From Candidatus Latescibacterota bacterium (GTDB taxonomy: Bacteria; Latescibacterota; UBA2968): a stretch of 41,041 nt of DNA. Of the stretch, positions 2,661 to 26,624 are shown in pieces. Under the pieces are notes generated by a model. It had not been told where the DNA came from, did no database searches, and worked only from the letters and a program-made list of their open reading frames with translations. The stretch covers positions 1 through 41,041 of the forward strand of contig JAYODI010000054.1 of NCBI GenBank assembly GCA_038279365.1. Reading direction: 5' to 3'. How positions within the stretch are numbered: position 1 is the first letter of the stretch; every line of letters starts with the position of its first letter. A program made the translations under genes and the position numbers.

Positions 2661-3623
2661 TTATCTTTGGGCAAATTGCAAAAGGGCCCGCATATACCCA
2701 AGAGAAAAAGCCATGCCGCGATGGCGATAGTTGGATTCTCCTTGGATGATGGGGCAGTGATCGGGTATGAGTACGCCATCGTATTGAACATCTTTGTATG
2801 CTTGAATGGCGTCAAACATATTGACGTCACCTTCGTCTATAAAAACCTCATCGAATTTGGGAAATTGTCCTCGTACATTGCGAAAATGGACATAAAATAT
2901 TTTTTGTTGTTTGCCAAAACGGTGGATGGCCTCAATGACTTTGTCGGGGGCCATTTCGGCCACGGTACCTTGGCAAAATTCAAGCCCATTATTGGGGCTT
3001 GGAACGATGTCGAGCAAGCGTTGCATATTGTCGTGATTGGTAAGCAAGCGGCCGATACCGCGCAAATATTCGGCAGGTGGATCATCTTGGTGAGCGGCCA
3101 GTTTTACCCCTGCTTCTTCGGCAATGGGTATGATGCGTTTGAGATAATATTCTAAGCGCTGCCACATGGCGTCAATGCTTACCGCACCCGTTTCGTGTGT
3201 AGATGTATCGGGGACTTTGCTTAGGTCAAAGCTCTTGATGCCACACCCACCACGACCGCCTCCTTTGTAATTGCGCCAGTGTCCCCAAACTTTGACTATG
3301 CTAAAATAGTAGCCCAATATGGGAATTTCTGCTTTGCCCATGTTGCGTAAAGTTTGGCCAATATTGTCAATTTGTTCGTCGCGTTTAGGACCGGCATGCA
3401 ATACGTCATTCCAGTGGTCATTGGGTAAGTTTTCTATGGCTGCAAATTCGAGATCGTGCTTGTGAATGAGGTCTTTTAATGCATTGAGTTGGTCTAATTC
3501 TAAAATACCCCGATCACCCAAACGTGGGTTGTGAACCACAATGTGTGTGACCCCCAATTGTTTGGCAAAGAGCAGGTTGTCGTCTGTGACGTGTTGTTGT
3601 GGAAAACCAATACCGAGTTTCAT
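2661..3623 (-). CDS. uxuA: Mannonate dehydratase family protein
   Basis: AIEN, IPIAEEAGVKLAAHQDDPP, GLEFCQGT, YVHFRNV, FIDEGDVNM, PDH, AFSLGY motifs. Confidence 0.85.
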   Translation of the reverse strand: MKLGIGFPQQHVTDDNLLFAKQLGVTHIVVHNPRLGDRGILELDQLNALKDLIHKHDLEFAAIENLPNDHWNDVLHAGPKRDEQIDNIGQTLRNMGKAEIPILGYYFSIVKVWGHWRNYKGGGRGGCGIKSFDLSKVPDTSTHETGAVSIDAMWQRLEYYLKRIIPIAEEAGVKLAAHQDDPPAEYLRGIGRLLTNHDNMQRLLDIVPSPNNGLEFCQGTVAEMAPDKVIEAIHRFGKQQKIFYVHFRNVRGQFPKFDEVFIDEGDVNMFDAIQAYKDVQYDGVLIPDHCPIIQGESNYRHRGMAFSLGYMRALLQFAQR

Positions 3624-10113: not shown

Positions 10114-11208
10114 TTAGAATGCAGATTGCACCGACCATTGAAGCCGAAGGTCGTTGGCGATGCGGGCATTGTTGGGTGATGGGTTGCGGTATTTTGTTTG
10201 CCAGTGTGAAATTTCAAAACCAAACTGGGTATTTGATGACAAGGCATAAGTAACCAAGCCAAATTCAAATGCATTTTGAGAACGGATATCGGGGAGGTTG
10301 GCGAGATAGTTTTTTTCTTCGTCACATAAATCGTCTAAACCACCACCCAAAGAAAATGCCAGTGGGCCATTGGGATCATATGTCAGATTGATCCAACCGC
10401 CTCTGCTTTTGAGTTCGTTGACACAATCGTGATGGGAAATGGCACCATAATAGGCGGCTGTATTCACTCCTGTATAAGCCTCTCCCAAGAGGGTTATTTG
10501 AGAGGAGAGGTCAAACTTGCCGTCTATATTGATGGACCACGTAGCATATTCTTCTTGGGCTGTACCGGGGGCATTGAGGAGGCCGTAATGGGCAGATGCA
10601 CCAATGGCAAACTTAGAAAATTGCAACGCCGTGCGCGTTTGGATGGTAGGAACCCCAGAAGCATCGCCATCTGGGATGGCATCGGCGTTTAAGTCGGAAC
10701 TTAAACTGCGGGTGATACCAAGGGCAAATGTGTAGGGCATTTGGGTGATAAAAATGGCCAATTGGGGGCGTCGATAGCCAATGTTGCCTGCACCATATCC
10801 AACTGTATAATTGGTGGAAGTGGGATTTAAGGGGGCTATGAGGTCTATGGCTTGACCTGCTCGGAGCATGGTTGGCCCCAGGGGGATGTCTACATAGGCT
10901 TTGCGAAGGGCGAGGCTGTTTTTGTTTTCGGTGCCGCCTCCGTAGAAGTCTATTTCTATTATGCCTTTTGTTTTGTCGCGCATAAGCTGGACGCCCAGGC
11001 GCGTTTGACGGGCGGTGAAGCTTAGTGTGTGTGCGCTTTTTTGTTGTGATTGGGGTTCCACATACATAATGAAATTGCCATGACTTGAGAGGTGGTTGTC
11101 GTAGGCGATGTCGAGTTTCAGGTATCCATAAATGCTGGTTTGTAGCTCTTGCGCATGGATATTTGCAAAGACCAATATGGCCACAATAGAAAAAATGATG
11201 TGTTTCAG
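10114..11208 (-). CDS. DcaP-like outer-membrane porin
   Basis: IYGYLKLD, ARQTRLG, IEIDF, LRKAY, AGQ, YRRPQ motifs; terminal Phe; best signal peptide starts at CTG 11208 (ORF track uses GTG 11184). Confidence 0.75.
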   Translation of the reverse strand: MKHIIFSIVAILVFANIHAQELQTSIYGYLKLDIAYDNHLSSHGNFIMYVEPQSQQKSAHTLSFTARQTRLGVQLMRDKTKGIIEIDFYGGGTENKNSLALRKAYVDIPLGPTMLRAGQAIDLIAPLNPTSTNYTVGYGAGNIGYRRPQLAIFITQMPYTFALGITRSLSSDLNADAIPDGDASGVPTIQTRTALQFSKFAIGASAHYGLLNAPGTAQEEYATWSINIDGKFDLSSQITLLGEAYTGVNTAAYYGAISHHDCVNELKSRGGWINLTYDPNGPLAFSLGGGLDDLCDEEKNYLANLPDIRSQNAFEFGLVTYALSSNTQFGFEISHWQTKYRNPSPNNARIANDLRLQWSVQSAF

Positions 11209-11217
11209 GGTAGGCCT

Positions 11218-12597
11218 CTATGCTGTTTTTATTTTGGATGAAAACGACAAATTGGGTTCCGCTATGCTGTTTGTAGCACTTTGTGCGCGTGCAAGGCCCC
11301 AAACCACAATGGCGCAAGCTGCTGCGATAAAACATAAGATGCCAGCAAAAACAAACGCCATGATGTATTGTTTGGTGATGTCAAATAAGACCCCACCCAC
11401 CACTGGCCCCAAGATGCCTGCAACGCCATATGCCGTAAAAATCCACCCGTAGTTCATACCCAAATTTTTGGGACCAAAATAATCGGCCGTGGCTGAGGGG
11501 AAGAGTGCAAAATTGCCACCAAAATTGAGCCCTACCCACGCAGATGCTAAGAAGATGGCCAAATGGGATTCGACACTCACCAAGACCATAAAGGCCATGC
11601 CTTGTGCCAAAAACATAATCATCATGGCGCGAGGGCGGTCTATCAAGTCACTGACTTTGCCCCAGAAAATACGACCCAGCGCATTGAATATGGCCAAAAT
11701 GCCAACAGGTTCAATAAATCGACCAAAACCACCCATCCAGGCAGGGGCAAAGGTTTTGCCTTGAAGAATGGCACCCATCATGGGTTTCCATTGTCCAATA
11801 GCCATAAGCCCAGATGTGGCTCCAAATATAAATGTCAACCAAAGCATACACGCCAAGGGTGTGTTGAGCATTTCTCTGTAGGTGAAGTCGGCTTGTTTGT
11901 TAAAATCATTTTGAGGAGGCGTCCATCCGGGAGGTGTCCATCCGGGGGGTGGGTTTTTGAGGAGACTGGCTCCCAAAATGACAGCGATGGCGCAGACAAG
12001 GCCGTGGAGGATAAAGAAGGATTGCCAACCAATGCCAAACCCCGAACCTTGATACACACCCAAACCTACGAGCAATATTTGAGATAAGCCCATGGCTTCG
12101 TCTCCTTCGCCTGGGGGGAGAAGGAGGGTGGATGCTGGGCCAGCAAAAAAGAGTGCGCCGGCTCCAAAACCTGCTACTGCCAGACCAGTGATGAGGCCTT
12201 TTTTGTCAGGAAACCATTTAACGGATGCGGCAATGGGGCAAACATAGGCAAATCCAATACCTGCTCCTCCCAAGATGCCATAGGTAACATATAAGGCCCA
12301 AGGGCGGTCTGCTGAAATGAGAAATGCACCCAAAAGGAAGGACAAGCCCAAAAGCCCTCCTCCAATGGAGGCTACAATACGTGGGCCTAAGCGATCTTGC
12401 AGCCGACCTGCCGGTATCATGGTGAGGGCAAAAGTGGCCAATGCGAAAGAAAAAGCCCATTGGGTGGTTGCCCGATCCCATCCAAACTCCAATTGCAAAG
12501 GTTTGATAAAAACACTAAACGCATAGACCGTACCTAAGATGATTTGTACGATGAGGGCACCTGCCACAATCTTCCATCGATTTGTTTGGTGTGTCAT
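11218..12597 (-). CDS. OFA-family MFS transporter (oxalate:formate antiporter / L-lactate transporter-like)
   Basis: LGTVYAFSVF, AGRLQDRLGPR, KWFPDKKGLITGLAVAGFGAG, GRIFWGKVSD, GGNFALFP..TADYFGPKNLG.NYG. Confidence 0.9.
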   Translation of the reverse strand: MTHQTNRWKIVAGALIVQIILGTVYAFSVFIKPLQLEFGWDRATTQWAFSFALATFALTMIPAGRLQDRLGPRIVASIGGGLLGLSFLLGAFLISADRPWALYVTYGILGGAGIGFAYVCPIAASVKWFPDKKGLITGLAVAGFGAGALFFAGPASTLLLPPGEGDEAMGLSQILLVGLGVYQGSGFGIGWQSFFILHGLVCAIAVILGASLLKNPPPGWTPPGWTPPQNDFNKQADFTYREMLNTPLACMLWLTFIFGATSGLMAIGQWKPMMGAILQGKTFAPAWMGGFGRFIEPVGILAIFNALGRIFWGKVSDLIDRPRAMMIMFLAQGMAFMVLVSVESHLAIFLASAWVGLNFGGNFALFPSATADYFGPKNLGMNYGWIFTAYGVAGILGPVVGGVLFDITKQYIMAFVFAGILCFIAAACAIVVWGLARAQSATNSIAEPNLSFSSKIKTA

Positions 12598-12816: not shown

Positions 12817-12867
12817 TTTTCATTCTGTGAGTGGAGAATTTGGTCGTAAAATGTGGTGTTATTGAAA

Positions 12868-12883
12868 AGGCACGGAACTTGCT
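12868..12883 (+). promoter_or_regulatory. sigma-54 (-24/-12) promoter for the radical SAM operon
   Basis: AGGCAC-GGAAC-TTGCT. Confidence 0.7.
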
Positions 12884-12939
12884 CAAGTGATTTGTTGTGC
12901 GTGTTATTGATCATTTTACCTTTTGCTTGGATATTCGCG

Positions 12940-13137
12940 ATGATGGGTTCAAAACTTTTTCACGATCAGCAGATTGCCGCTGGTGAACATGTGCGTATCT
13001 GGCAAAGAGAAGATGGCAATTTGTTTGAGCATCTGTTTCCAACTGGGCGTAGCATTAGCATTCATTGTAGAACATTGGATGAAGCACGGTCATTGATGGC
13101 CCAATTTGTTCAAAATGACTCAAAAGCGGAGTCTTAA
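12940..13137 (+). CDS. Small hypothetical protein (65 aa)
   Basis: First ATG ORF downstream of the sigma-54 promoter; globular-looking sequence; weak SD. Confidence 0.45.
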   Translation: MMGSKLFHDQQIAAGEHVRIWQREDGNLFEHLFPTGRSISIHCRTLDEARSLMAQFVQNDSKAES

Positions 13138-13177
13138 TTTCCATTGTTTGAGTCGATATATCAAGAGAGGATCCGCC

Positions 13178-14257
13178 ATGAAACGCTTTGATTTGCGGTT
13201 GTTGTTTTGGGAAACCACTGTTGGGTGCAATTTGAGATGTGCGCATTGCCGTGCTTCGGCAGAACCTGGGCGTTCTCCAAACGAAATGAATACCCAACAA
13301 GCGTTGAAATTTGTGGATGATATTGCTGCTTTTGCCAAGCCGATTCTTGTGCTCAGTGGCGGAGAACCTCTTTATAGACCCGACATTTTAGATATTGCCA
13401 AACATGCTTCATCGCGTGGCTTGCAGGTGGCTTTGGCGACCAATGGGACACTGGTTGACCAAAAAATGGCCCACGCCATTCACAACGCTGGTATTTCTCG
13501 TGTGAGCATTAGTATTGATGGGGTGAACAATGCTATGCATGATGCTTTTAGGGGGGTGCCGGGGGCTTATGAAGCCGCTTTGGATGGGGCTGCTTTTTTG
13601 CGTCGCGAAGGTGTGGGGGTGCAATTTAATACCACTGTGACCAAACACAATATTGACTCGTTGCCGCAAATTGTGGCCTTGGCTGAGCGTGAAAAAGCGG
13701 TGGCCTTGCATCTGTTTTTGTTGGTGCCAGTTGGATGTGGTTTGGAAGTGGCTGAAACGGATCAAATTTCGCCTGAAGAATATGAAGATGTACTCAATTG
13801 GTTTTATCAAAAGTCTCGCGAGACAAAAATGGAAATGCGGGCAACGTGTGCGCCACATTATTATCGCATTATCAGGCAACGGGCACGAGAAGAAGGCCGA
13901 AAAGTGACTCTGCAAACAGATGGTATGGCGGCAATGACAAAAGGGTGCTTGGCGGGGACAGGTGTGTGTTTTGTGTCTTATACGGGAGATGTTTACCCGT
14001 GTGGTTACTTTCCTGTTTCGGCTGGCAATGTGCTCAATGAGTCGATTTCCGATATTTGGGCTGATGCCCCATTGTTTCAAGAATTGCGTGATACAGATAA
14101 TTTGGAAGGAAAGTGCGGTGGGTGTGAATATCGCAATGTGTGTGGTGGGTGCCGAGCCCGAGCATATGGCATGACGGGCAATTATTTGGGGGAAGAACCA
14201 TTTTGTGTTCATGAACCTGTTATGATACAGCGGGCATCTGAGGCTGTTGGCGTTTAA
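13178..14257 (+). CDS. Radical SAM/SPASM protein, AhbD (heme b synthase)/NirJ-like
   Basis: WETTVGCNLRCAHCRA, LSGGEPL, TCAPHYYRI, GCLAG, SPASM cysteines CGGCEY..VCGGCRARA...EEPFC; SD GAGAGG. Confidence 0.85.
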   Translation: MKRFDLRLLFWETTVGCNLRCAHCRASAEPGRSPNEMNTQQALKFVDDIAAFAKPILVLSGGEPLYRPDILDIAKHASSRGLQVALATNGTLVDQKMAHAIHNAGISRVSISIDGVNNAMHDAFRGVPGAYEAALDGAAFLRREGVGVQFNTTVTKHNIDSLPQIVALAEREKAVALHLFLLVPVGCGLEVAETDQISPEEYEDVLNWFYQKSRETKMEMRATCAPHYYRIIRQRAREEGRKVTLQTDGMAAMTKGCLAGTGVCFVSYTGDVYPCGYFPVSAGNVLNESISDIWADAPLFQELRDTDNLEGKCGGCEYRNVCGGCRARAYGMTGNYLGEEPFCVHEPVMIQRASEAVGV

Positions 14258-14271
14258 GGGAGGTGAGTGAA

Positions 14272-14376
14272 ATGATGTCGTTTCTTGTTCGAACGGTTTG
14301 TGTGCTGGGTTTGGCAGGTATTTTGATGTTGCCTTTGTTGTTGCTCATGCAATCGGGTGTGTTGCATGTTATGTGA
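14272..14376 (+). CDS. 34-aa single-TM small protein (not in ORF track)
   Basis: Strong SD GGGAGGTGA; MMSFLVRTVCVLGLAGILMLPLLLLMQSGVLHVM*; stop overlaps the next gene start. Confidence 0.55.
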   Translation: MMSFLVRTVCVLGLAGILMLPLLLLMQSGVLHVM

Positions 14377-15541
14377 AGCTCAGGTGCGGGTGCGCCCGCA
14401 CGTGATCAATGTGTCTTTGGACACCAGCCATGTCTATACTTTTGAACCATCGGGGCGGTTGCATGCGGCATTTATGCGTGGCAGACATTATCGACGGGCA
14501 TTAGACAATCGCATTTTAGAATCATGGCGGGTTGGTTTTCGGGGAATGGGTGGTTTGCGCCAAAGATGGATTTGTGGTGATGAGGCGGTGGATATGCTTG
14601 ATGGTATTCACCGCCAAGTGGCCATGGTGGCATCGCATCATTTGAGTGACAAACAACATCATGCAATTTCCCGTATTGGCCATTGGACATCCGATGTCTA
14701 TTTGCAGGATGTGGGTTTTTTCCAGCAGGTTTATAGGCCGATTGGTATTTTGCCTCCCGACCAATATCTCTCAGTTGTTGTTCAGGCAACTGAAGGGTGT
14801 TCCTGGAATCGATGTCGCTTTTGTGATTTTTATCAAGGTCAATCCTTTCGTATTCGCCCGTTAGATGAGTTAGATGCTCATGTGAAAGGTGTTCGTCAGT
14901 TTTGGGGAGATGGGATTGGTTTGAGGCGGTCTATCTTTTTAGGCGATGGCAATGCATTATCGGTTTCTTGGTCGGCTATTTTGGATATGTTTCGTTGTCT
15001 TCAGTCTCATTTTCCAGAAAAGGGATTCGGCCCATCGTGGCGAGAAACCTATGCATTTGTTGATACATGGGGGGGGCGTCGATTAAGCATTGAGCAAATA
15101 AAGACATTGCGGTCTATGGGCTTGAAACGTGTGTATCTGGGTTTGGAAACGGGACATGATGCCTTGCTTAAAAAAGTGAATAAACGAGGGTCTGCGGCTT
15201 TGGCTTGTGATGTGATTCGGCGTTTCAAAGCCGCTGGTGTTTCGGTGGGGGTGATTGTGATGTTGGGCATTGGGGGAAAGGCATTTGCCCAAGATCATGT
15301 ATGGGATACGGTAGCAGTGATCAACGAGATGGGGTTGGGGATGGGCGATATGGTTTATTTTTCGCCATTGGTGGTTTCTTCCCATTTGCCTTATGCCCAA
15401 GATATGTGGGCGGCCAATATTGAGCCACTTTGTGACACTGACCTGGCAGATCAATATGAGCAATTGGTGATGGGTTTACACTTTGATAAAGTGGCCAAAC
15501 CCAAGATGGCGATGTATAATATCAAGCGCTTTGTATATTAA
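14366..15541 (+). CDS. Radical SAM protein, uncharacterised
   Basis: YRPIGILPPDQY, QATEGCSWNRCRFC, IFLGDGNAL, RVYLGLETG; start uncertain. Confidence 0.85.
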   Translation: MLCEAQVRVRPHVINVSLDTSHVYTFEPSGRLHAAFMRGRHYRRALDNRILESWRVGFRGMGGLRQRWICGDEAVDMLDGIHRQVAMVASHHLSDKQHHAISRIGHWTSDVYLQDVGFFQQVYRPIGILPPDQYLSVVVQATEGCSWNRCRFCDFYQGQSFRIRPLDELDAHVKGVRQFWGDGIGLRRSIFLGDGNALSVSWSAILDMFRCLQSHFPEKGFGPSWRETYAFVDTWGGRRLSIEQIKTLRSMGLKRVYLGLETGHDALLKKVNKRGSAALACDVIRRFKAAGVSVGVIVMLGIGGKAFAQDHVWDTVAVINEMGLGMGDMVYFSPLVVSSHLPYAQDMWAANIEPLCDTDLADQYEQLVMGLHFDKVAKPKMAMYNIKRFVY

Positions 15542-17082: not shown

Positions 17083-17171
17083 GCATCAAGGCGATGGAGG
17101 GGGTATTGGAAGGGAGTTGTTTAAGTATTTGTTTTTAATTATTTTGAATGTTTTTGTTTTGCAAAGATAGT

Positions 17172-17187
17172 TGGCACGATGTTTGCG
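17172..17187 (+). promoter_or_regulatory. sigma-54 promoter for xdhC-like/DUF302 genes
   Basis: TGGCAC-GATGT-TTGCG, preceded by an AT-rich IHF-like tract (minus strand AAACAA-ATAC-TTA). Confidence 0.8.
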
Positions 17188-17225
17188 CCCCTTGTGTGCA
17201 ACAAATTTGGATCGTTGGGGGCAAA

Positions 17226-17840
17226 ATGGAATCGGATTTTGGGATTGTGCCGAAATTGTGGGAATGTGATATTGTTGCTAGCTTGGCACCTCTTGTTAAG
17301 ACCTTGGAGGAGAGACCACGGTTGTGTGTTTTTGGTGCAGGCCTTGTTGGACAAGCCATTTCGTATATTGCACCCCTGGCAGGTTTTCGCGTTTTGGTGG
17401 TGGATGATTGTGCAACCTTTGCCAGTCGAGAACATTTGCCCTATGTAGACGAAATAAAAGTGTGTCCATTTGAACAAGCTGTTGATGAAGTAGAAATGGA
17501 TCCCAAAACATTTGTTGCTATTATGACCCATAAACATCGATGGGACTGCCAAATTTTGGCAAAGGTGTTACGAAGGCCTATCGCTTATGTAGGCATGATG
17601 GGGAGTCGGGATAGAGTTGAACAGATTTTTAATGCACTTAAAAAGGATGGATTCACAGAATGTGAGTTGGGGCGGGTATGTGCGCCCATTGGGTTGGATA
17701 TTGGGGGCAATTCGCCTGGTGAAATAGCGATCAGTGTGGTGGCGCAAATGATACAAGTGTGGTATCGGCAAGTCCAATTGCTAAAAGCCCAATCAGAAAA
17801 TATGGGTTCTGTGCCTTGGGATGTTTTGTTACGTGGATGA
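17226..17840 (+). CDS. XdhC family protein, C-terminal Rossmann domain only
   Basis: VFGAGLVG, VVDD, IMTH.H..D, YVGMMGSR, APIGLDIGG.SP.EIAIS; start set to the first ATG after the sigma-54 promoter. Confidence 0.85.
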   Translation: MESDFGIVPKLWECDIVASLAPLVKTLEERPRLCVFGAGLVGQAISYIAPLAGFRVLVVDDCATFASREHLPYVDEIKVCPFEQAVDEVEMDPKTFVAIMTHKHRWDCQILAKVLRRPIAYVGMMGSRDRVEQIFNALKKDGFTECELGRVCAPIGLDIGGNSPGEIAISVVAQMIQVWYRQVQLLKAQSENMGSVPWDVLLRG

Positions 17841-17882
17841 ACAGTTGCTGAATAAACCTCTAAATTGGGAAGGTGTTCTAAA

Positions 17883-18266
17883 ATGGTTATTACTGTGCAA
17901 TCAAAAAAGAATATAGAGCAAGTATGTGAAGATTTGCAGGTGGCCATCACAAACAGAAAGTTTGGCGTGGTTGGTATGCATAATATGAAAGAGACAATGG
18001 CTAAAAAAGGGGTTTCGTTTGAACGGGAGTGCCGGATATTTGAAGTGTGTCATCCAGGCCATGCCAAGACTGTTTTGGAACAAAACATGGAAATATCTAC
18101 GGCTTTGCCTTGTCGTATTTCGGTATACGAAGATGATGGGAGTGTTGTTTTGGCCACTTTAAAACCTGCTTTGATGTTGCAGATGTTTGGTGGTGAAGGG
18201 TTGGATCAGGTGGCGCAAGAAGTGGAAACTGTTTTGTTGGAAAGTATGGAAGTTGCAGCAAAATAG
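17883..18266 (+). CDS. DUF302 domain protein
   Basis: FGVV..HN, IFEVCHP..A, STALPCRISVYE, LKP motifs. Confidence 0.85.
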   Translation: MVITVQSKKNIEQVCEDLQVAITNRKFGVVGMHNMKETMAKKGVSFERECRIFEVCHPGHAKTVLEQNMEISTALPCRISVYEDDGSVVLATLKPALMLQMFGGEGLDQVAQEVETVLLESMEVAAK

Positions 18267-18512
18267 GTTTTTATGTATTTCTATGGCGATGTGCGGGAAT
18301 AACTTAGGGGTTGCATCATGCCTGGTGAATTGCTCAGATGTGAGTATGGGGTGTGATTATTTCCGTTGTTGGAAATGGTGGTGAAAAAAATTCACTTGGG
18401 TGGTTTTGGTGATTTTATATGGGTGGTATGGCATCCGTAATTGATATGTGCCAAAGTGCATCCTAAGATTTTTGATGTAACAGTTGTTTTGAACTGGAAG
18501 GTGAGGTTGAAC

Positions 18513-20066
18513 TTGATTGCTATCAAGCGGTATGCAATGGCTCTAATTGTGAGTATGTGCTCTTTTCAAGTGTCTGCACAAGAATTGGTTACGTCGAACA
18601 CTTGTGCTCAATGTCACAGTTCTGATGGAAATGTGCTGATGGTGTCGGGGGAAGATGTGAGCCCCATTCAGGGGTGGAAAGCATCGGTCATGGCATTTGC
18701 ATCACAAGACCCATATTGGCGAGCAAAAATGGCAGCAGAGGTGGCCGATCGGCCGAGTATGAAAGCGACCATTGAAAAGGAATGTTTGACTTGCCATGCC
18801 CCTGTTGCTGTGGCCAAAGCTGTGGCAAATGGACAGCCTTACACCCGTGAATCGCTCGAACACGATGCCTTGGGGTTGGATGGTGTAACGTGTTTGTCTT
18901 GTCATCGCATTGCACCAGATGGTTTGGGAAAAAAAGCGAATATGAGTGGGCATTTTCAATGGGCAAAAGATGAGTCGGTTTATGGACCTTATCAAAACCC
19001 ATTGCAAAGACCTATGTGGATGCATACGGGTTTTGTGCCTCAATATGGCGCACACATCGAAAGTGCTTCGTTGTGTGCGTCGTGTCACAATTTGTACACG
19101 CCAGTTTTAGATGATGACAATCAAGTGGTGGGGCAATTTGCAGAGCAAACTATTTTTAGTGAATGGGCGGCTTCGGATTATGCCGAAGTGGGAGAGACGT
19201 GTCAGTCGTGCCACATGCCCGGTTTGGCAAACAATTCGCGCATTGCATTGATGCCTCCGTTTGCCCCTGTGCGAAAAACGGTGTGGAACCATCGTATTGT
19301 GGGGGGCAATACGTTTTTGTTGTCTTTGCTAAAATATAAGCGAGATGCATTCAATGTATCGCGAGAGGAATTTGATTTTGAGCGAACAATAGAAGAAACG
19401 CGCACCTTTTTGGAAACGGCAGTGGAAATGGATATGGAAGTAAAAACAGAAGGTGATTCAGTGGATGTGGTGGTTCGCTTGACAAACCTGACGGGACACA
19501 AATTTCCCACAGGATATCCCGAACGACGTGCTTGGTTACATGTATGGGTGGAAGACCCTGCAGGGCATATTGTTTTTGAAAGTGGTGCCGTGGATACGTT
19601 GGGGCAAATTGCGATGGACAGAGAAATCATGCCTCATTTTGATTTGATCAATGCCTCAAACCAGGTTCAAATTTACGAAATGATTCCGGGCGACTTGCAG
19701 GGTCGAAGAACGCGACGTATCTTACGTGCCAGTACAAAGCTTAAGGATAACCGATTGTTGCCCAGTGGCTTTCATGATACGATGGATGAATTTGGCGAAG
19801 ATATAAAAGTGGTGGGTGCCGCATTGGAAGATGATAATTTTGATGGCGGTGAGGGGGCTGATCGGGTGACTTATCGTTTTTATCGCAAAGGGCAAGTGGC
19901 TTTGCGGGTATATTGCGAGTTACTCTATCAACCCGTTCCACCTCAGGCCATTCAAGATTTGGAAGGCTTTGAGGGCGTGGATGTTTCGCAATTTCTACAT
20001 TTAACACGCGTATCAAAACCTCCTATGCAAGAGACTATTGGGAGCATATCTAAAATCATTCAATAA
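18513..20066 (+). CDS. Periplasmic multiheme (5 x CxxCH) cytochrome c
   Basis: CAQCH, CLTCH, CLSCH, CASCH, CQSCH; DPYW, GHKFPTG, DNRL motifs; signal peptide ending QVSA; TTG start behind AGGTGAGG. Confidence 0.85.
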   Translation: MIAIKRYAMALIVSMCSFQVSAQELVTSNTCAQCHSSDGNVLMVSGEDVSPIQGWKASVMAFASQDPYWRAKMAAEVADRPSMKATIEKECLTCHAPVAVAKAVANGQPYTRESLEHDALGLDGVTCLSCHRIAPDGLGKKANMSGHFQWAKDESVYGPYQNPLQRPMWMHTGFVPQYGAHIESASLCASCHNLYTPVLDDDNQVVGQFAEQTIFSEWAASDYAEVGETCQSCHMPGLANNSRIALMPPFAPVRKTVWNHRIVGGNTFLLSLLKYKRDAFNVSREEFDFERTIEETRTFLETAVEMDMEVKTEGDSVDVVVRLTNLTGHKFPTGYPERRAWLHVWVEDPAGHIVFESGAVDTLGQIAMDREIMPHFDLINASNQVQIYEMIPGDLQGRRTRRILRASTKLKDNRLLPSGFHDTMDEFGEDIKVVGAALEDDNFDGGEGADRVTYRFYRKGQVALRVYCELLYQPVPPQAIQDLEGFEGVDVSQFLHLTRVSKPPMQETIGSISKIIQ

Positions 20067-20119: not shown

Positions 20120-20157
20120 AAAAGCACATGTGTTGCATTGCAACATATGTGCTTTTT
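20120..20157 (+). terminator. Terminator-like hairpin centred on TGTTGCA-T-TGCAACA (possible enhancer)
   Basis: AAAAGCACATGTGTTGC-att-GCAACATATGTGCTTTTT. Confidence 0.65.
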
Positions 20158-20264: not shown

Positions 20265-21587
20265 ATGTTTAAATATGTGACCTGCTTGACATTGGTTTTG
20301 AGTTTGTCAGTTGGTGCTGAAGATGTGAAACCGGTGAGTTTGGCACAGGCGCAACGTTTTGCTATCGAAAACAACCATCAATTGCGCATTGCCGAAAGCC
20401 AAGTGGCACAAGCCCAGGCAAAAAAGTTCCAAACCTGGGCAGGGCATTTGCCTTGGGTGAAATTGACCGAATCGGGCATTCGCACCAATGATGCGGTGCA
20501 AGCTTTTGGTATGCGATTAAAGCAGGAGCGTTTTACTCAGGCCGATTTTTCTATTGTTGCATTAAATGACCCGGCACCCATCACAAACTTTCAAACGCAG
20601 CTTGAAATTCGCCAACCCTTGTTTTTGGGTGGTGAAACCCTTTATGGACGCAAAGCGGCCACTATGGGGGTAAAAGCATCAGAGGCACAATTGGTACGTC
20701 AGGCGCAGTTGGTGCGCTTTGAAACTGCAAGGGCTTATTGGGGGGCGGTGTTGGCGCAAGAGGCCCTTAGAGCCGTTCAAAAAGGCCTAGAGACAGCCCA
20801 AAAACACGCGACCCAAACAGAGGTGCGCTATCGGGAAGAAACGGCAGATATGGCCGATGTGCTTGCGGCACGTGTGCGTGTGGCCGAATTGGAAGGTGAG
20901 GCCCTTCGGGCTTCTAACGATGTGGCCAATGCTCGCGACAACTTGATTCTTGTTATGGGGTTGAATTTTGATGATGGATTAACCCTTACAGACAGTTTGA
21001 TGAGAAAGCCAGTTCCCAATGATTTGGAGCGACTTTTAGATGTTGCCCAAAAACATCGACCAGATTTTCAAGCTGCTCAATTGCAAGAAAAAGCCACTGG
21101 ATATGGTGTGGGTGTGGCTCGGGCAAAATATATACCTCAGGTGAGTGCTTTTGCCACCTTTGCCTTTGACAGCGAAGACTTGCTTAAGCGAGAAGGGGAA
21201 AGTTGGTTGGTGGGGGGGCAAGTGTCTTGGGACATTTTTTCGGGTGGGCAAACCCTTGGCAAAGTGCGTGAAGCCAAAGCAACACATTTGGGTGCTCGGG
21301 CTGCTGTGGAATTTAAGCAGGCCGATGTGATTCGGGAGGTGCGGGCATCTTATCGCAATGTAATGGCCGCCAATGCCCAAGTGGATATTGCGCAGCGGGC
21401 TGTTGGGCATTCTGAAGAACGGTTGCGCATTGCCCAATTGCAATATCGGGAAGGGTTGTCAACGTCACTCGATTTGCTCACTGCCGAATCTGACTTGCGA
21501 AGAACACGTGTTTTATTGCTTCAGGCGTTGTATTTGTTAAATTTGGGACTGTCAGAGCTGGAAGTTTCTGTGGGACAAACACTTTAG
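20265..21587 (+). CDS. TolC family outer-membrane factor
   Basis: Signal peptide, two OEP-type helical repeats, QPLF.GG, YREGL...LDLL. Confidence 0.9.
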   Translation: MFKYVTCLTLVLSLSVGAEDVKPVSLAQAQRFAIENNHQLRIAESQVAQAQAKKFQTWAGHLPWVKLTESGIRTNDAVQAFGMRLKQERFTQADFSIVALNDPAPITNFQTQLEIRQPLFLGGETLYGRKAATMGVKASEAQLVRQAQLVRFETARAYWGAVLAQEALRAVQKGLETAQKHATQTEVRYREETADMADVLAARVRVAELEGEALRASNDVANARDNLILVMGLNFDDGLTLTDSLMRKPVPNDLERLLDVAQKHRPDFQAAQLQEKATGYGVGVARAKYIPQVSAFATFAFDSEDLLKREGESWLVGGQVSWDIFSGGQTLGKVREAKATHLGARAAVEFKQADVIREVRASYRNVMAANAQVDIAQRAVGHSEERLRIAQLQYREGLSTSLDLLTAESDLRRTRVLLLQALYLLNLGLSELEVSVGQTL

Positions 21588-21609: not shown

Positions 21610-21804
21610 ATGAGCATGGATCGCATTATTCGTATGTTTGCTGGCCTCTTTGTTTTGGCGAGTTTGGCATTGGGGTGGTATGTAAGCCCCTATTGGTTCT
21701 TGTTTACGGCTTTTGTTGGTTTTAACTTGTTTCAATCATCTTTAACTGGATTTTGTCCATTGGAAATAATTTTGGCAAAATTGGGTGTTGGAAAAGCCCA
21801 TTAA
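21610..21804 (+). CDS. DUF2892 (YgaP-like) two-TM protein
   Basis: DRIIR.FAG, FVGFNLFQSSLTGFCPL; SD AAGGAG. Confidence 0.9.
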   Translation: MSMDRIIRMFAGLFVLASLALGWYVSPYWFLFTAFVGFNLFQSSLTGFCPLEIILAKLGVGKAH

Positions 21805-21819
21805 TCGCAAAGGACATAC

Positions 21820-21981
21820 ATGGATATACTTTGGGTCATTTTGATGTTGGGGGGATATGTATTTGTGATGCGATATTTATTGCCCAAAATGGGTGTGGAT
21901 ACGTGAATGGCACCCCGTGCTCTGGATGAGCAAGTAGGCAAAGAAGAGACTGGGAATCGTCGGCAAGAGGAGAATGCATGA
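21820..21981 (+). CDS. Putative small membrane selenoprotein (53 aa, Sec at codon 29); 28 aa if TGA is a stop
   Basis: [62 protein letters not shown]; final stop overlaps the MFP ATG. Confidence 0.65.
21904..21932 (+). promoter_or_regulatory. Candidate bacterial SECIS element
   Basis: TGA + 11 nt + TGCTC-TGGAT-GAGCA hairpin with G at loop position 2. Confidence 0.55.
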
Positions 21982-23051
21982 AACGTTTGATGTTCATATT
22001 GGGAGTGGCTCTGCTTGGTAGTTGTGCCGAAGAGAAACATCAGAATATGGCACCAGAATCTGGTGAGGTCCAAAAAATAACTTCTGAAATGGTGCGCTTG
22101 GCCAATGTGCCTGTGCCAGTGACCGCGGTGGGAACGACTGAGCCCTATGCACGTGCCACGCCGGGGACGCGTCTTTTGGGGCGGGTGGCTTCGGTGGCAG
22201 TCGAAGAAGGCCAACGTGTGAAAGCCGGTGAGGTGCTGGTGCGCATAGAGGGAAGTGATTTGTCTGCAAAGCGTCAGCAAGCGGCATCGGCACTACAAGA
22301 AGCTCAGGCTGTGCGCGACAATGCCCAAGCGCAGGTGAGGCGCATTCGCAATCTGTTTAACGAAAAGGCGGTTTCCAAACAGGTTTTGGATGAAACGGAA
22401 ACGGCTTTTGAACGGGCAAGAGCCAATGTGGTTGCTGCCGAAGGCGCACTTATGGAAGTGGATGCCAATGTGGGATATTTGTCGGTGTCTTCACCTGTGG
22501 ATGGTATTGTGGTACAAAAATTTGTTGAATTAGGAGATATGGCCACACCAGGTGCGCCTCTTTTTACGGTGGAGCAACAAGACCCAATGAAGGTGACCGT
22601 TCAAATCAGTGAGCGCGATTTGCCCTATATCAAAGTGTCACAACCTGTTGTGGTGCGCATTGAAGCGACACAATATCGCAAAGATTTGGATGGCCGTGTA
22701 GAAGCCGTGATTCCTTCGGGTGATCCCCGCAGTCGTACATTTGAAGTTCGGGTGGTTTTGGATAATAAAAGTGCGACCCTACAATCGGGCATGTTTGCAC
22801 GGGTGCAATTTCAAAAAGACAGTCGTCCTGGGTTGTTAATTCCGGCATCTGCGGTGGTGCAAGAGGGACAATTGCAAGGCGTTTATGTCGTTGATGGCGA
22901 TCGGGTGCGGTTGCGATGGGTGCGGCTTGGAAAGGTATTTGGTGATCGAGTAGAAGTCATTTCGGGGTTGTCTGTGGGAGATGAGATTGTGACGGATGGG
23001 TTTAAGAGCCTGCGAGATGGCCAAAAGGTGGAGGTGGTAAACAATGCGTAA
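21978..23051 (+). CDS. RND efflux periplasmic adaptor (MFP), lipoprotein
   Basis: Lipobox LLGSC; lipoyl halves [12 protein letters not shown] and SPVDGIV; helical hairpin; VEVISGL..GD. Confidence 0.95.
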
Positions 23052-26000
23052 ATTGGGTGTTGCAGGTCAGGTGGCGCATTATTTTATCCAATCGAAGCTC
23101 ACCCCCTTAATCATTGTGGCATCTTTGTTGTTGGGGGCTTTTGCAGTGGTGATGTTGCCTCGAGAAGAAGAGCCTCAAATTAAGGTACCCATGGTAGATG
23201 TATTTGTTTCTGCGCCAGGGTTATCGGCCAAGGAAATAGAGAAACGCGTGACCACTCCAATGGAAAAATTGTTGTGGGAAATACCGGGTGTGGAATATGT
23301 GTATTCGACTTCCAGCCCAGGACAAAGCATGGTGATTGTCAGGTATTATGTGGGTGAAGATGAAGAAGACAGTATTCTCAAGACGTATAACAAACTGTAT
23401 TCAAATATTGATAAAATTCCCCCTGGGGTTTCTCAGCCCCTTGTTAAGCCTCGTTCAATAGATGATGTGCCCATATTGGCGCTTACCTTTTGGAGTGCAA
23501 ACTATGATGGTTATATGTTGCGTCGTATTGCGGCTGAGGTCGAAAATGCCATAAAGGCCATTGATGATGTGTCTGAAACACAACTGATTGGTGGGCTTAG
23601 AAGACAGCTGAATGTGGCATTGTATCCTGATCGGTTGGCGGCTTTTGGGGTGACAGCTGGTGGGGTTTTGGAAACCCTGCGTGGGGCAAATCGTTTGTTG
23701 CCTGCTGGAGGGATTTTGGAACGCAACCAACATGTGGTGGTCGAAACGGGGTCTTTTTTTGAAGATGCCGACGATGTGGGTGCGGTGGTTATTTCGGCCA
23801 CTGAGGGGCGGCCGGTATATTTGCGCGATGTGGCACAAGTGATAGATGGCCCAGAGGAACCTGCTGATTATGTGCGGTTTGGTGTGGGGGCGAGTGAGCA
23901 AACGGGTGGTTTGGATGCTGCAATTGGGCAAACCTTTTCGGGGGTAACGCTTTCGGTATCTAAGCGAAAGGCCAAAAATGCCATTGATGTGGCTCACAGA
24001 GTGTTGAATAAGGTGGAGGCGTTAAAGGGGCGGATAATTCCCAGTGATGTTGAAGTGACCATTACGCGCAATTATGGCGAAACGGCAGCCGAAAAATCGA
24101 ATGAGTTGCTTTTTCATATGGCCTTGGCCACCTTGTCGGTGATTGTTTTGATTTGGTTTGTTTTGGGGTTGCGTGAAGCCGGTGTGGTGGGTGTGGCCAT
24201 TCCGGTGACGTTGGGATTGACGTTGTTGGTGTTCTATTTGTATGGGTATACCCTCAATCGCATTACTTTATTTGCCCTCATTTTTTCCATCGGGATCTTG
24301 GTAGATGATGCCATTGTGGTGGTTGAAAATATGGTGCGCCACTTTCGTATGCCCAACAACCGTGGTCGTTCATTGACCGAAGTCGCCGTTGAAGCGGTTG
24401 ACGAAGTGGGTAATCCGACCATATTGGCCACATTTGCGGTCATTGGGGCCATTTTACCTATGGCTTTTGTAGGGGGATTAATGGGCCCTTATATGCGCCC
24501 AATTCCCGTGGGGGCAACTGCGGCGATGATGTTTTCTTTGATTGTTGCATTTGTTGTAACCCCTTGGGCGGCTTTGCGTTTGTTAAAACAAGACGGCGAC
24601 GAACACGCTCACGAAGCAGAAGGGTGGACCACCCAAATTTATCGCAAGGCAATGAATCCTTTAATTGCTTCGGGTAAAAAGCGCGGTATTTTTCTGTTGG
24701 GGATGGTGGGCTTGTTGCTTATGGCAATGACCACGGTGGGGATAAAATTTGTGATCGTGAAAATGTTGCCTTTTGACAACAAAAGTGAATTTCAGGTGAT
24801 GATCAATATGCCAGAAGGCACCACGTTAGAAACGACTGCTTCGGTGGCACAAGAAATGGGAGCTTATTTGGCACGTGTGCCAGAGGTGACAAACTACCAG
24901 ATCTACACGGGGACATCGGGGCCGTTTAATTTTAATGGGTTGGTCAGGCATTACTTTTTGCGAAAGGCGCCCCATCAGGCTGATATTCAAGTTAATTTGA
25001 CGCCCAAACATGACCGTTCGCGACAAAGCCATGACATTGCCAAGGCCGTCAGACCAGAGTTGACAAATATTGCACAAGCGTGGGGAGCACGCATAGAAGT
25101 GGCAGAGGTCCCACCAGGCCCACCGGTATTACAAACCCTTGTGGCTGAAATTTATGGTCCCAACTATGATCGCCAAATTGAGGTGGCCCAACAGATTTTG
25201 GCGGTGTTTGAACAATCGGAAGGCGTCGTGGATGCCGATTGGTATACGGAGGCCCATCAAACGAAGTATCGCTTTGTGGTCGATAAAGAAAAGGCTGCAC
25301 TCAATGGGGTGAGCACAGAGCAAGTGGCACAAACCTTGTCTATTGCGGTTGGAGGTGTGGTGGTGGGGTTGGCCCATCAAGACGAAGAAGCTGAAGATTT
25401 GAACATCGTCTTGCAAGTTCCCGTGGCCGAACGCTCCAGTGTGCCAGATTTGTTAGAGGTGAAGGTGGCAACTCCAACGGGCACATTGGTTCCATTGGGC
25501 GCATTGGTACAGGTGCTTGAAACAAACACTGACAGAAGTATTTACCACAAAAACCTCAAGCCTGTTGTTTATGTGACAGCCGATGTGGGGGGGCAATATG
25601 AAAGTCCGGTATATGCCATTATGCAATTGGGTGAGGCCATTTCAAAACTTCAGATCCCCGAAGGGTATGAGATTGAACAATTTACAGCAAGCCAACCCTT
25701 TTTGACGGACAAGTTGGCCATGAAGTGGGATGGTGAGTGGCATATTACATATGAAGTTTTCAGAGATTTGGGTTTGGCTTTTGCGGCGGTTTTGATTCTG
25801 ATCTATATTTTGGTTGTGGCGTGGTTTCAGTCGTTTTTGACACCGTTGGTTATTATGTCGGCCATTCCCTTTTCACTTGTGGGCATTATGCCCGCACATG
25901 GGATGTTGGGGGCATTTTTTACGGCCACATCTATGATTGGATTTATTGCTGGGGCTGGTATTGTGGTGCGGAATTCGATCATATTGGTCGATTTTATTAA

Positions 26001-26241
26001 TTTGAGAATTGAAGAAGGTTTCCCCCTCGAGCAAGCTGTGGTCGATGCTGGGGCGGTGCGCTTTCGCCCGATGTTGTTGACGGCGGCGGCAGTCATTGTG
26101 GGGGCTTCGGTTATTTTGTTTGACCCCATCTTTCAAGGTTTGGCCATTGCGTTGATGGCTGGTGAGGTGGCGTCATTGTTGTTGTCGAGAATGGCCGTAC
26201 CCATATTATATTATATGCAGCGTAAATCTTTGGCAGATTGA
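23044..26241 (+). CDS. RND efflux permease subunit
   Basis: 1065 aa; [43 protein letters not shown]. Confidence 0.95.
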
Positions 26242-26279: not shown

Positions 26280-26624
26280 TTGTTTTTGCGTGGGGTCGTC
26301 ATTTGTGTTTGGATAGGCTTTGGATGTCTGGGGTGTGAAAAAACACCTGTAGATGGAAGAACAGTTTTTTTAACCGTTGGGTGTGCGCGTTGCCACGGCA
26401 ATGATGGAGAAGGTGCTTCATTGGGTCCGCCGTTAGAGGATCTCAGGCGCAAATTTAACCAACAGGCACTGACGGCATTTTTAGACAACCCAATAGCCTA
26501 TGCCGAAAAAGACGAACGGCTTCAAAAGTGGCGAGATGAGTATTATACACCTATGCCCAAATTGCAAATGACCGATGAACAGCGTGTGGCTTTGGTGGGG
26601 TATTTGTTTGAAAAACATCCGTAA
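26280..26624 (+). CDS. Monoheme cytochrome c, probable lipoprotein
   Basis: LGC lipobox, CARCH, GPPL, distal MP. Confidence 0.85.
   Translation: MFLRGVVICVWIGFGCLGCEKTPVDGRTVFLTVGCARCHGNDGEGASLGPPLEDLRRKFNQQALTAFLDNPIAYAEKDERLQKWRDEYYTPMPKLQMTDEQRVALVGYLFEKHP

Follow-up and report, generated by a model that had tools for sequence, protein, structure and literature searches.

The analyzed stretch of DNA, hereafter called the window, comprises 41,041 nucleotides from a Candidatus Latescibacterota bacterium and hosts an RND efflux operon on its forward strand. The first gene of this operon encodes an outer-membrane efflux protein (OEP, 20265..21587). It is followed by a YgaP-like_TM/DUF2892 gene (21610..21804; PF11127, 51 bits; PDB 2mpn YgaP, E 1e-11) with a conserved Cys in the sequence GFCPL, by the RND periplasmic adaptor gene (MFP, 21978..23051), and by the RND permease gene (23044..26241), OEP, MFP, and permease being assigned by Pfam. 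No substrate class could be assigned to the permease, its best solved relatives being generic RND pumps, with ZneA and AcrB similarly distant. A terminator-like hairpin, formed by a perfect palindrome of 17 bp and accompanied by a T-run (20120-20156), is located between the gene of a multihaem cytochrome and the OEP gene and marks the upstream border of the efflux operon.

Between the DUF2892 and MFP genes, the original prediction had placed a small uncalled ORF with a Shine-Dalgarno sequence, an in-frame TGA, a 24-codon tail, an ATGA overlap with the MFP gene, and a hairpin 11 nt after the first TGA. All of these elements were found in place on the forward strand, and both neighbors were confirmed by Pfam. 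The ORF starts with the ATG at 21820, 5 nt downstream of a Shine-Dalgarno-like AAGGA (21810..21814) that was read directly from the sequence. Its N-terminal 28 codons (21820..21903), MDILWVILMLGGYVFVMRYLLPKMGVDT, comprise an acidic N-terminus, one hydrophobic helix, and a conserved M-R-Y-L-L-P-K-M-G-V-D-T box. The subsequent in-frame TGA (21904..21906) corresponds to the Cys/Sec column of the protein family described below. Behind it, a hydrophilic read-through tail of 24 codons (21907..21978), lacking the second Cys of the family and also holding the ribosome-binding site of the MFP gene, extends to a TGA (21979..21981) that overlaps the MFP ATG at 21978 as ATGA. A run of four C residues (21913..21916) lies just 5' of a TGC codon (21918-21920), and this codon misses the in-frame U+5 position by one base on the 5' side. 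The hairpin itself, UGCUC-UGGAU-GAGCA (21918..21932, arms 21918-21922 and 21928-21932), resembles a bacterial SECIS element (bSECIS).

Upstream of the operon lies the multihaem c-type cytochrome gene (18441-20066), and a mono-haem cytochrome c gene (26280-26624) directly follows the operon. The two showed weak, sub-threshold matches to the ExtKL (seleno)protein and ExtS models, which describe a selenite/tellurite reduction operon. The multihaem cytochrome was rejected as an ExtKL selenoprotein, scoring 31.6 bits against a cutoff of 250 and having no TGA extension. The region 5' of the multihaem cytochrome gene (17148-18266) encodes a DUF302 protein as well as a fragment of an XdhC-family maturation factor that is confined to the Rossmann domain. 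A radical SAM/SPASM protein (13106-14257) reached 477 bits compared with the cutoff of 500 of the AhbD haem b synthase model, and a second radical SAM gene (14357-15541) follows. A GeoRSP-type selenopeptide system at 12853-14257 was likewise considered and rejected, the radical SAM enzyme scoring best as an AhbD-like haem b synthase.

Taken each alone, the open frame and the ATGA overlap of the window are not beyond chance, an open tail of at least 24 codons being found after 501 of 1490 random TGA trinucleotides in the same stretch. TGA is a minority stop there, used by 8 of 26 long ORFs. Folding of the whole region was no better than that of shuffled sequences (z = +0.84 and +0.58), and minimum free energy (MFE) folds of 60-91 nt did not contain the hairpin. 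In a positioned test, perfect hairpins starting 8-18 nt after a TGA and carrying a G in the first two loop bases were compared with those at random TGA trinucleotides in the same DNA, the positional criteria having been set after the hairpins had been seen. By this measure, the hairpin of the window (energy <= -6.7 kcal/mol) was matched or beaten at 17 of 800 random sites, a significant result. Rfam returned no match at the gathering threshold for the window and none at E<=10 around the ORFs of the window and of the related locus L006, an absence that carries no weight for elements this short.

The original prediction had proposed a homology search with the read-through sequence. As a single query in a word-based search this sequence matched nothing, but the family was found by means of the 28-aa part and of profiles. 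A set of 80 loci was fetched by RND permease similarity and searched by tblastn with the 28-aa part, yielding matches in loci L006, L009, and L011; a motif scan and a profile search of the same loci added L046 and nothing further. The N-terminal box is thus present in four of the 80 RND loci and in the window. An alignment of the five read-through sequences retrieved 45 database proteins, 37 of which stop exactly at the T of the box, whereas eight continue beyond it; three of these have C at the TGA column, three W, one R, and one S. With a profile built from 13 long forms, the search of 1.84 billion representatives returned 1024 of them at E<=1e-3 and 52 at E<=1e-10. The 28-codon part of the window itself matches the family profile with 62 bits (E 2e-17).

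The members of this family share one transmembrane helix, followed by R-W-V-L-P-x-x-G-[VI]-x-T-[C/U]-M-S-G-x-C and a hydrophilic tail, with L22, P23, G26, and T29 present in at least 191 of 194 aligned proteins. The N-terminal flank of the helix contains 167 D/E versus 37 K/R residues and the C-terminal flank 314 K/R versus 6 D/E. Because of these charges, the positive-inside rule probably gives an N-out, C-in topology, with the Cys/Sec motif facing the cytoplasm. In respect to annotation, the family is a blank: the source records of its members are nameless or read "hypothetical protein", and 12 members searched against Pfam and NCBIfam 20.0 at E<=10 gave only two unrelated chance matches at E~0.1. 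The ORF forms of the window had no family match in Pfam (E<=0.01) or NCBIfam (E<=1) either. The nearest cluster in the ESM Atlas, with a score of 0.87, is an unnamed 56-aa "hypothetical protein" cluster and serves as a lead only. A tblastn search of the PLSDB plasmids with the Cys form P0003 gave no match. Fused forms were also considered, and the sole longer match (P0082, 215 aa) looks like a mis-called start.

All 194 retrieved proteins were aligned to the family profile and the residue at the TGA column was tallied. Cys is the most frequent state (86 proteins, e.g., P0003, P0008, and P0009), and 80 of these have a further Cys at position +5. The small proteins with an LPxxGVxT-C-M motif named in the original prediction thus do exist. 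A further 70 proteins end at the column, so that position +5 does not apply; the actual stop codon is known for those among them that equal L011 or L046. Trp occupies the column in 29 proteins (26 with Cys at +5), Arg in three (2 with Cys at +5), and Ser, Gly, and Leu in two each (with 2, 2, and 1 having Cys at +5, respectively). Each of these non-Cys residues is a single-base neighbor of TGA. Behind the Trp, the motif M-S/A-x-x-C continues in frame as it does in the Cys forms. The Trp forms are probably products of gene callers reading TGA as Trp (translation table 4), because Trp is enriched about tenfold in their tails (16 of 1032 residues versus 5 of 3094 in the Cys forms, p 1e-6). If they are indeed TGA codons, the in-frame Cys at +5 would show selection on the frame past the UGA. 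Cys homologues combined with in-frame conservation past the UGA constitute the classical SECIS-independent criterion for a selenoprotein, as given in PMC13188914.

At the DNA level, five members are available (the window, L006, L009, L011, and L046), and all five carry TGA at the same codon, with no TAA, TAG, or Cys among them. From local stop usage, five TGAs would be expected with a chance of ~0.013. In the four related loci the TGA directly follows ...LP[RK]xGVxT, and three of these four (three of the five DNA-level members) continue in frame with M-x-x-x-C. The exception among the related loci is L046, in which TGA occupies the first motif position but +5 is Arg. Its small gene (2847-3071, reverse strand) and its close relative P0002 are reciprocal in this respect, P0002 having Ser in place of the TGA and a Cys at +5. 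Conservation beyond the TGA, on which the original prediction depended, is thus seen in the family (26 of 29 Trp forms, which are probable UGA forms, and three of five DNA-level members with Cys at +5) but not for the window, the tail of which begins UMAPRA.

According to the Fig. 2 legend of PMC13188914, the bSECIS model comprises a loop of 3-9 nt, a stem of 4-16 bp, a G in the first two loop bases, a UGA-to-loop distance of 16-37 nt, and an MFE <= -7.5 kcal/mol. All five hairpins fall within this model, those of L006, L009, L011, and L046 clearly and that of the window only just, with its spacing at the lower limit and its energy at the threshold. L006 has a stem of 8 bp with the loop GUC (-13.2 kcal/mol, spacing 23 nt, 1 of 684 controls as good or better), L009 a stem of 9 bp with the loop GGA (-10.2 kcal/mol, spacing 23 nt, 8 of 530 controls), and L046 a stem of 6 bp with the loop CGUGC (-11.3 kcal/mol, spacing 17 nt, 6 of 536 controls). 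In L011, MFE folds show a bulged stem of 7 bp with the loop GUU at a spacing of 22 nt, and its score (-10.5 kcal/mol, 8 of 689 controls) refers to a different, perfect hairpin with a 6-bp stem and the loop CGGUUCGC. The hairpin of the window has a stem of 5 bp and the loop UGGAU at a spacing of 16 nt, with -6.7 kcal/mol for the bare stem and -7.5 kcal/mol if two outer pairs are included. Fisher's method gave a combined p of 9e-7 for the five hairpins, a value based on five DNA sequences and on criteria set after the hairpins had been seen. At the family level, whole-stretch folding z-scores are modest (-0.36 to -1.89) and not informative.

An 8-bp stem persists in both L006 and L009 even though paired positions on its two sides differ, and RNAalifold on three sequences returned eight pairs, four of them with both-sided changes. 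The residues xVExR, which the hairpin region encodes, occur in 6 of 26 Trp forms versus 0 of 79 Cys forms. This distribution fits an RNA constraint that would act where the UGA needs recoding; shared ancestry could also explain it. A hairpin 3' of the TGA, as expected in the original prediction, is present in all five DNA-level members, that of the window being borderline. Because Cys homologues, a kept M-x-x-x-C, and TGA codons with bSECIS-like hairpins in all five DNA-level members coincide, a Sec/Cys selenoprotein family is very likely, and we consider it highly likely that the UGA forms of this family are selenoproteins.

The copy in the window is the atypical and weakest member of this set, with a minimal hairpin and the partner Cys out of frame. 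Its 15 nearest database relatives comprise 11 proteins ending at the TGA column, four Trp forms, and no Cys form, and judged by these relatives the gene belongs to the putative UGA-type branch of the family. Its read-through tail (UMAPRALDEQ...) has no Cys at U+5 because the TGC is shifted by one base: the sequence CGTGC, coding for S-C in L006, occurs here as well but one base further 5', immediately behind the C4 run, placing the TGC in frame +2, which reads NGTPCSG-stop. One base may really have been lost here, or the assembly may have miscounted the homopolymer. Within the 41-kb window, we found no selA, selB, selC, or selD, no tRNA, and no convincing other TGA-interrupted gene.

These peculiarities make it possible, if less probable than decoding at some recent time, that translation in the window simply ends at the TGA. 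The product would then be a 28-aa membrane peptide, a decaying or Sec-independent copy of a former selenoprotein, and the tail a spacer with the MFP ribosome-binding site. In favor of this, the partner Cys codon is one base out of frame, none of the other four hairpins is as weak (-6.7 versus -10.2 to -13.2 kcal/mol), the open tail is within chance, and no Sec machinery was found in the window. Moreover, tblastn with the 24-aa tail gave only matches with E>1, and the tail bears no likeness to those of other members. On the other hand, TGA has been kept in spite of being a minority stop, the G-loop hairpin is still rightly placed at a level reached by few control sites, all 15 nearest relatives are UGA-type, and the overlap between the read-through stop and the MFP start is exact. 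Furthermore, a one-base miscount in the C4 run would explain the lost Cys equally well. The odds that the UGA of the window is decoded as Sec today appear roughly even. For the original claim of a 53-aa selenoprotein this means that the ORF, its Cys homologues, and the TGA and hairpins of the family stand, but that the in-frame partner Cys is missing and the hairpin only just reaches the bSECIS thresholds; a 53-aa selenoprotein may plausibly be made from this locus.

The same doubt can be raised for the family as a whole, namely that the TGA is an ordinary stop throughout, leaving a 29-aa product, a hairpin that serves as an mRNA stability or attenuation element, and Cys proteins that are longer paralogues. 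Database entries called as 29-aa proteins (70 of 194), the absence of a SECIS assignment from Rfam, and the modest whole-stretch z-scores would agree with this, but the distribution of residues makes it very unlikely. A Cys occupies precisely the TGA column in 86 of 194 proteins, the non-Cys residues are all one-step neighbors of TGA, and the Cys at +5 is found behind Trp (26 of 29) just as it is behind Cys (80 of 86). In addition, all five DNA-level members use TGA, and the covarying hairpin is placed at a fixed spacing of 16-23 nt and has its G at the first or second loop position. The Sec/Cys family thus remains the preferred reading. The homologue codons, proposed as a check in the original prediction, agree with it, with TGA in five of five DNA-level members, Cys in 86 of 194 proteins, and TAA or TAG in none of the five.

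The genomic context of the small gene varies around a common set of neighbors. In the window, the DUF2892 and MFP genes enclose it, and in L009 and L011 it directly precedes a DUF2892 gene, followed by OEP, MFP, and RND genes; the DUF2892 gene accordingly adjoins it in three of five cases. In L006 and L046 it closes a divergently transcribed unit that begins with the gene of an ArsR-type regulator. ArsR-type regulators are found beside the cluster in L006, L011, and L046, and none is encoded in the window. The unit in L006 (2372-4640, reverse strand) consists of the ArsR gene, a tryptophanase-like lyase, and an OsmC-like peroxiredoxin, with the small gene at its end. OsmC-like proteins are a catalogued selenoprotein family, and the OsmC-like gene of L006 has no TGA. 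Wherever the small gene shares its strand with the gene behind it (three cases), the read-through frame closes right next to the following start, as ATGA with MFP in the window, as ATGA with DUF2892 in L009, and with a 2-nt gap in L011. This geometry would suit a selenium-sensing leader, in which Sec decoding of the UGA lets ribosomes reach the ATGA and so couples the next gene (MFP or DUF2892) to selenium status, but we regard this as highly improbable, as no gene follows the small gene within its transcription unit in L006 and L046, a separate Shine-Dalgarno sequence for each downstream gene is present inside the tail, and the abundant Cys forms with a conserved Cx4C argue for a function at the protein level.

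Extension of the context analysis to all 80 RND loci showed a DUF2892 gene in 48 of them, often right after the permease gene, and its Cys is invariant in 44 of 44 aligned proteins. This pairing of RND and DUF2892 genes seems to be new to the literature. A DUF2892/YgaP-TM gene with the motif FTxWCPM immediately follows the permease gene in many relatives of this RND pump, among them L026, L030, L031, L037, L040, L047-L050, L064, L068, L079, and L080 (coordinates around 11150-11400). The association of the small gene with DUF2892 anywhere in the locus is not significant (4 of 48 versus 0 of 32 loci, p 0.15); significance is reached only for the post-hoc class "DUF2892 upstream" (4 of 16 versus 0 of 39, p 0.005). 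As the loci were chosen by RND similarity, the linkage of the small gene to RND genes is partly a matter of construction.

Two precedents from other bacteria connect these neighbors with sulfur. The E. coli ygaVP pair combines a sulfide-derepressed, SqrR/BigR-like repressor of the ArsR type with YgaP (PMC9774250), and a DUF2892 gene of Azospira is induced about 10-fold by H2S (PMC5358917). By analogy, both point to reactive sulfur. The resemblance to YgaV-YgaP lies in the adjacent YgaP-like transmembrane domain and in the ArsR-type regulators that flank three of the four related loci. Unlike the E. coli system, in which an ArsR-type repressor accompanies a membrane rhodanese, the DUF2892 protein of the window stands alone in an RND operon and has no rhodanese domain, and in contrast to the family loci no small Sec/Cys partner has been described for ygaVP. 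The ArsR proteins of the related loci score below the cutoff of the BigR model and have differing Cys patterns; therefore, a role in handling soft metal(loid)s is equally conceivable.

Considering all of this, we propose that the family consists of small single-pass inner-membrane proteins, the core of which would be a membrane-proximal [Cys/Sec]-x4-Cys motif (T-[C/U]-M-S-G-x-C) situated just after the basic R-W-V-L-P-x-x-G box and probably facing the cytoplasm. In about half of the retrieved members the first Cys would be encoded by UGA with a bSECIS-type loop 16-23 nt later, and gene callers would shorten these proteins to 29 aa. The UGA of the window is presumed to be, or to have been until recently, a Sec codon, with read-through giving a product of 53 aa that ends in overlap with the MFP gene. 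The selenol/thiol pair may bind or exchange thiophilic species such as sulfane sulfur, selenium, or a soft metal(loid). It could do so on the inner side of the membrane, jointly with the invariant Cys that the neighboring YgaP-like DUF2892 protein carries, as part of a stress-responsive efflux module. We consider this explanation as a whole, a widespread Sec/Cys family of small membrane proteins with a UGA-type gene in the window and a function directed at thiophilic species, to be reasonably probable.

The original prediction had assigned the small protein to the pump as an accessory subunit. From gene order we infer that such a role is conceivable, the tightest neighbor link being that to the DUF2892 gene. 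AcrZ is a small single-helix accessory protein of an RND pump, and CusF is a soluble periplasmic chaperone of metal RND pumps. The family resembles both in its very small size and its association with an RND system, which suggests a substrate-handling helper as an idea. It shows no sequence relationship to them, with no Pfam match at E<=10; moreover, the C/U-x4-C chemistry is absent from AcrZ, and CusF is periplasmic and soluble. A far-reaching version of this idea would make the protein the first membrane-anchored small selenoprotein to act as a substrate-handling subunit of an efflux system, in which a cytoplasm-facing U-x4-C and the Cys of the YgaP-like two-helix DUF2892 protein capture thiophilic species (sulfane sulfur, selenium/tellurium, or a soft metal) and pass them to a dedicated RND pump, with UGA read-through coupling translation of the pump to the selenium supply; we regard this as speculative and rather unlikely.

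In respect to known selenoproteins, a 2026 inventory lists 119 prokaryotic families with models and motifs (PMC13188914). Within the parts of its Table 1 that were covered, no small single-helix protein with T-U-M-x-x-x-C is listed. A literature search with the motif strings, and with DUF2892 in combination with selenoprotein, found no description of the family, BSepDB Table S2, the Haft papers, and bioRxiv supplements lying outside its scope. Judged from sequence comparison, these proteins very probably represent a new family of bacterial Sec/Cys selenoproteins, with no new mechanism involved.

The same table (PMC13188914) includes predicted selenoproteins linked to transport and metals, namely a putative mercuric transport protein (C/SxxU), the SO_0444 family Cu/Zn efflux transporter (UxC), and the YeeE/YedE family (GUxSG). 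Like our family, these combine a Sec/Cys pair with a membrane or transport-linked protein and, as far as this source describes them, were predicted from Cys homologues, post-UGA conservation, and a bSECIS hairpin. In contrast to them, the members described here have a length of ~30-90 aa, a single transmembrane helix, and U-x4-C instead of a polytopic architecture, and they do not match the Pfam and NCBIfam models of those families. A second similarity exists to UXX-star and other very short selenoproteins with C-terminal Sec, described by Haft and co-workers and named in this table, which are also short and carry Sec near the C-terminal end with a SECIS spanning or following the stop. Their motif is different, these families are not known to carry a transmembrane anchor, and the models NF041114 and NF041211 were not matched.

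Bacterial selenoproteins are systematically mis-annotated, and public protein sets hold this family in the form of dozens of "hypothetical proteins" of 29 aa or of read-throughs with a W. A simple profile in combination with a TGA-aware gene call would correct many of these records. Recognizing the family would add small, membrane-anchored U-x4-C selenoproteins to a catalogue dominated by soluble enzymes of the thioredoxin fold. It may also provide a handle on two poorly understood partners, the YgaP-like DUF2892 proteins and a broad RND clade in which DUF2892 accompanies the pump in 48 of 80 loci.
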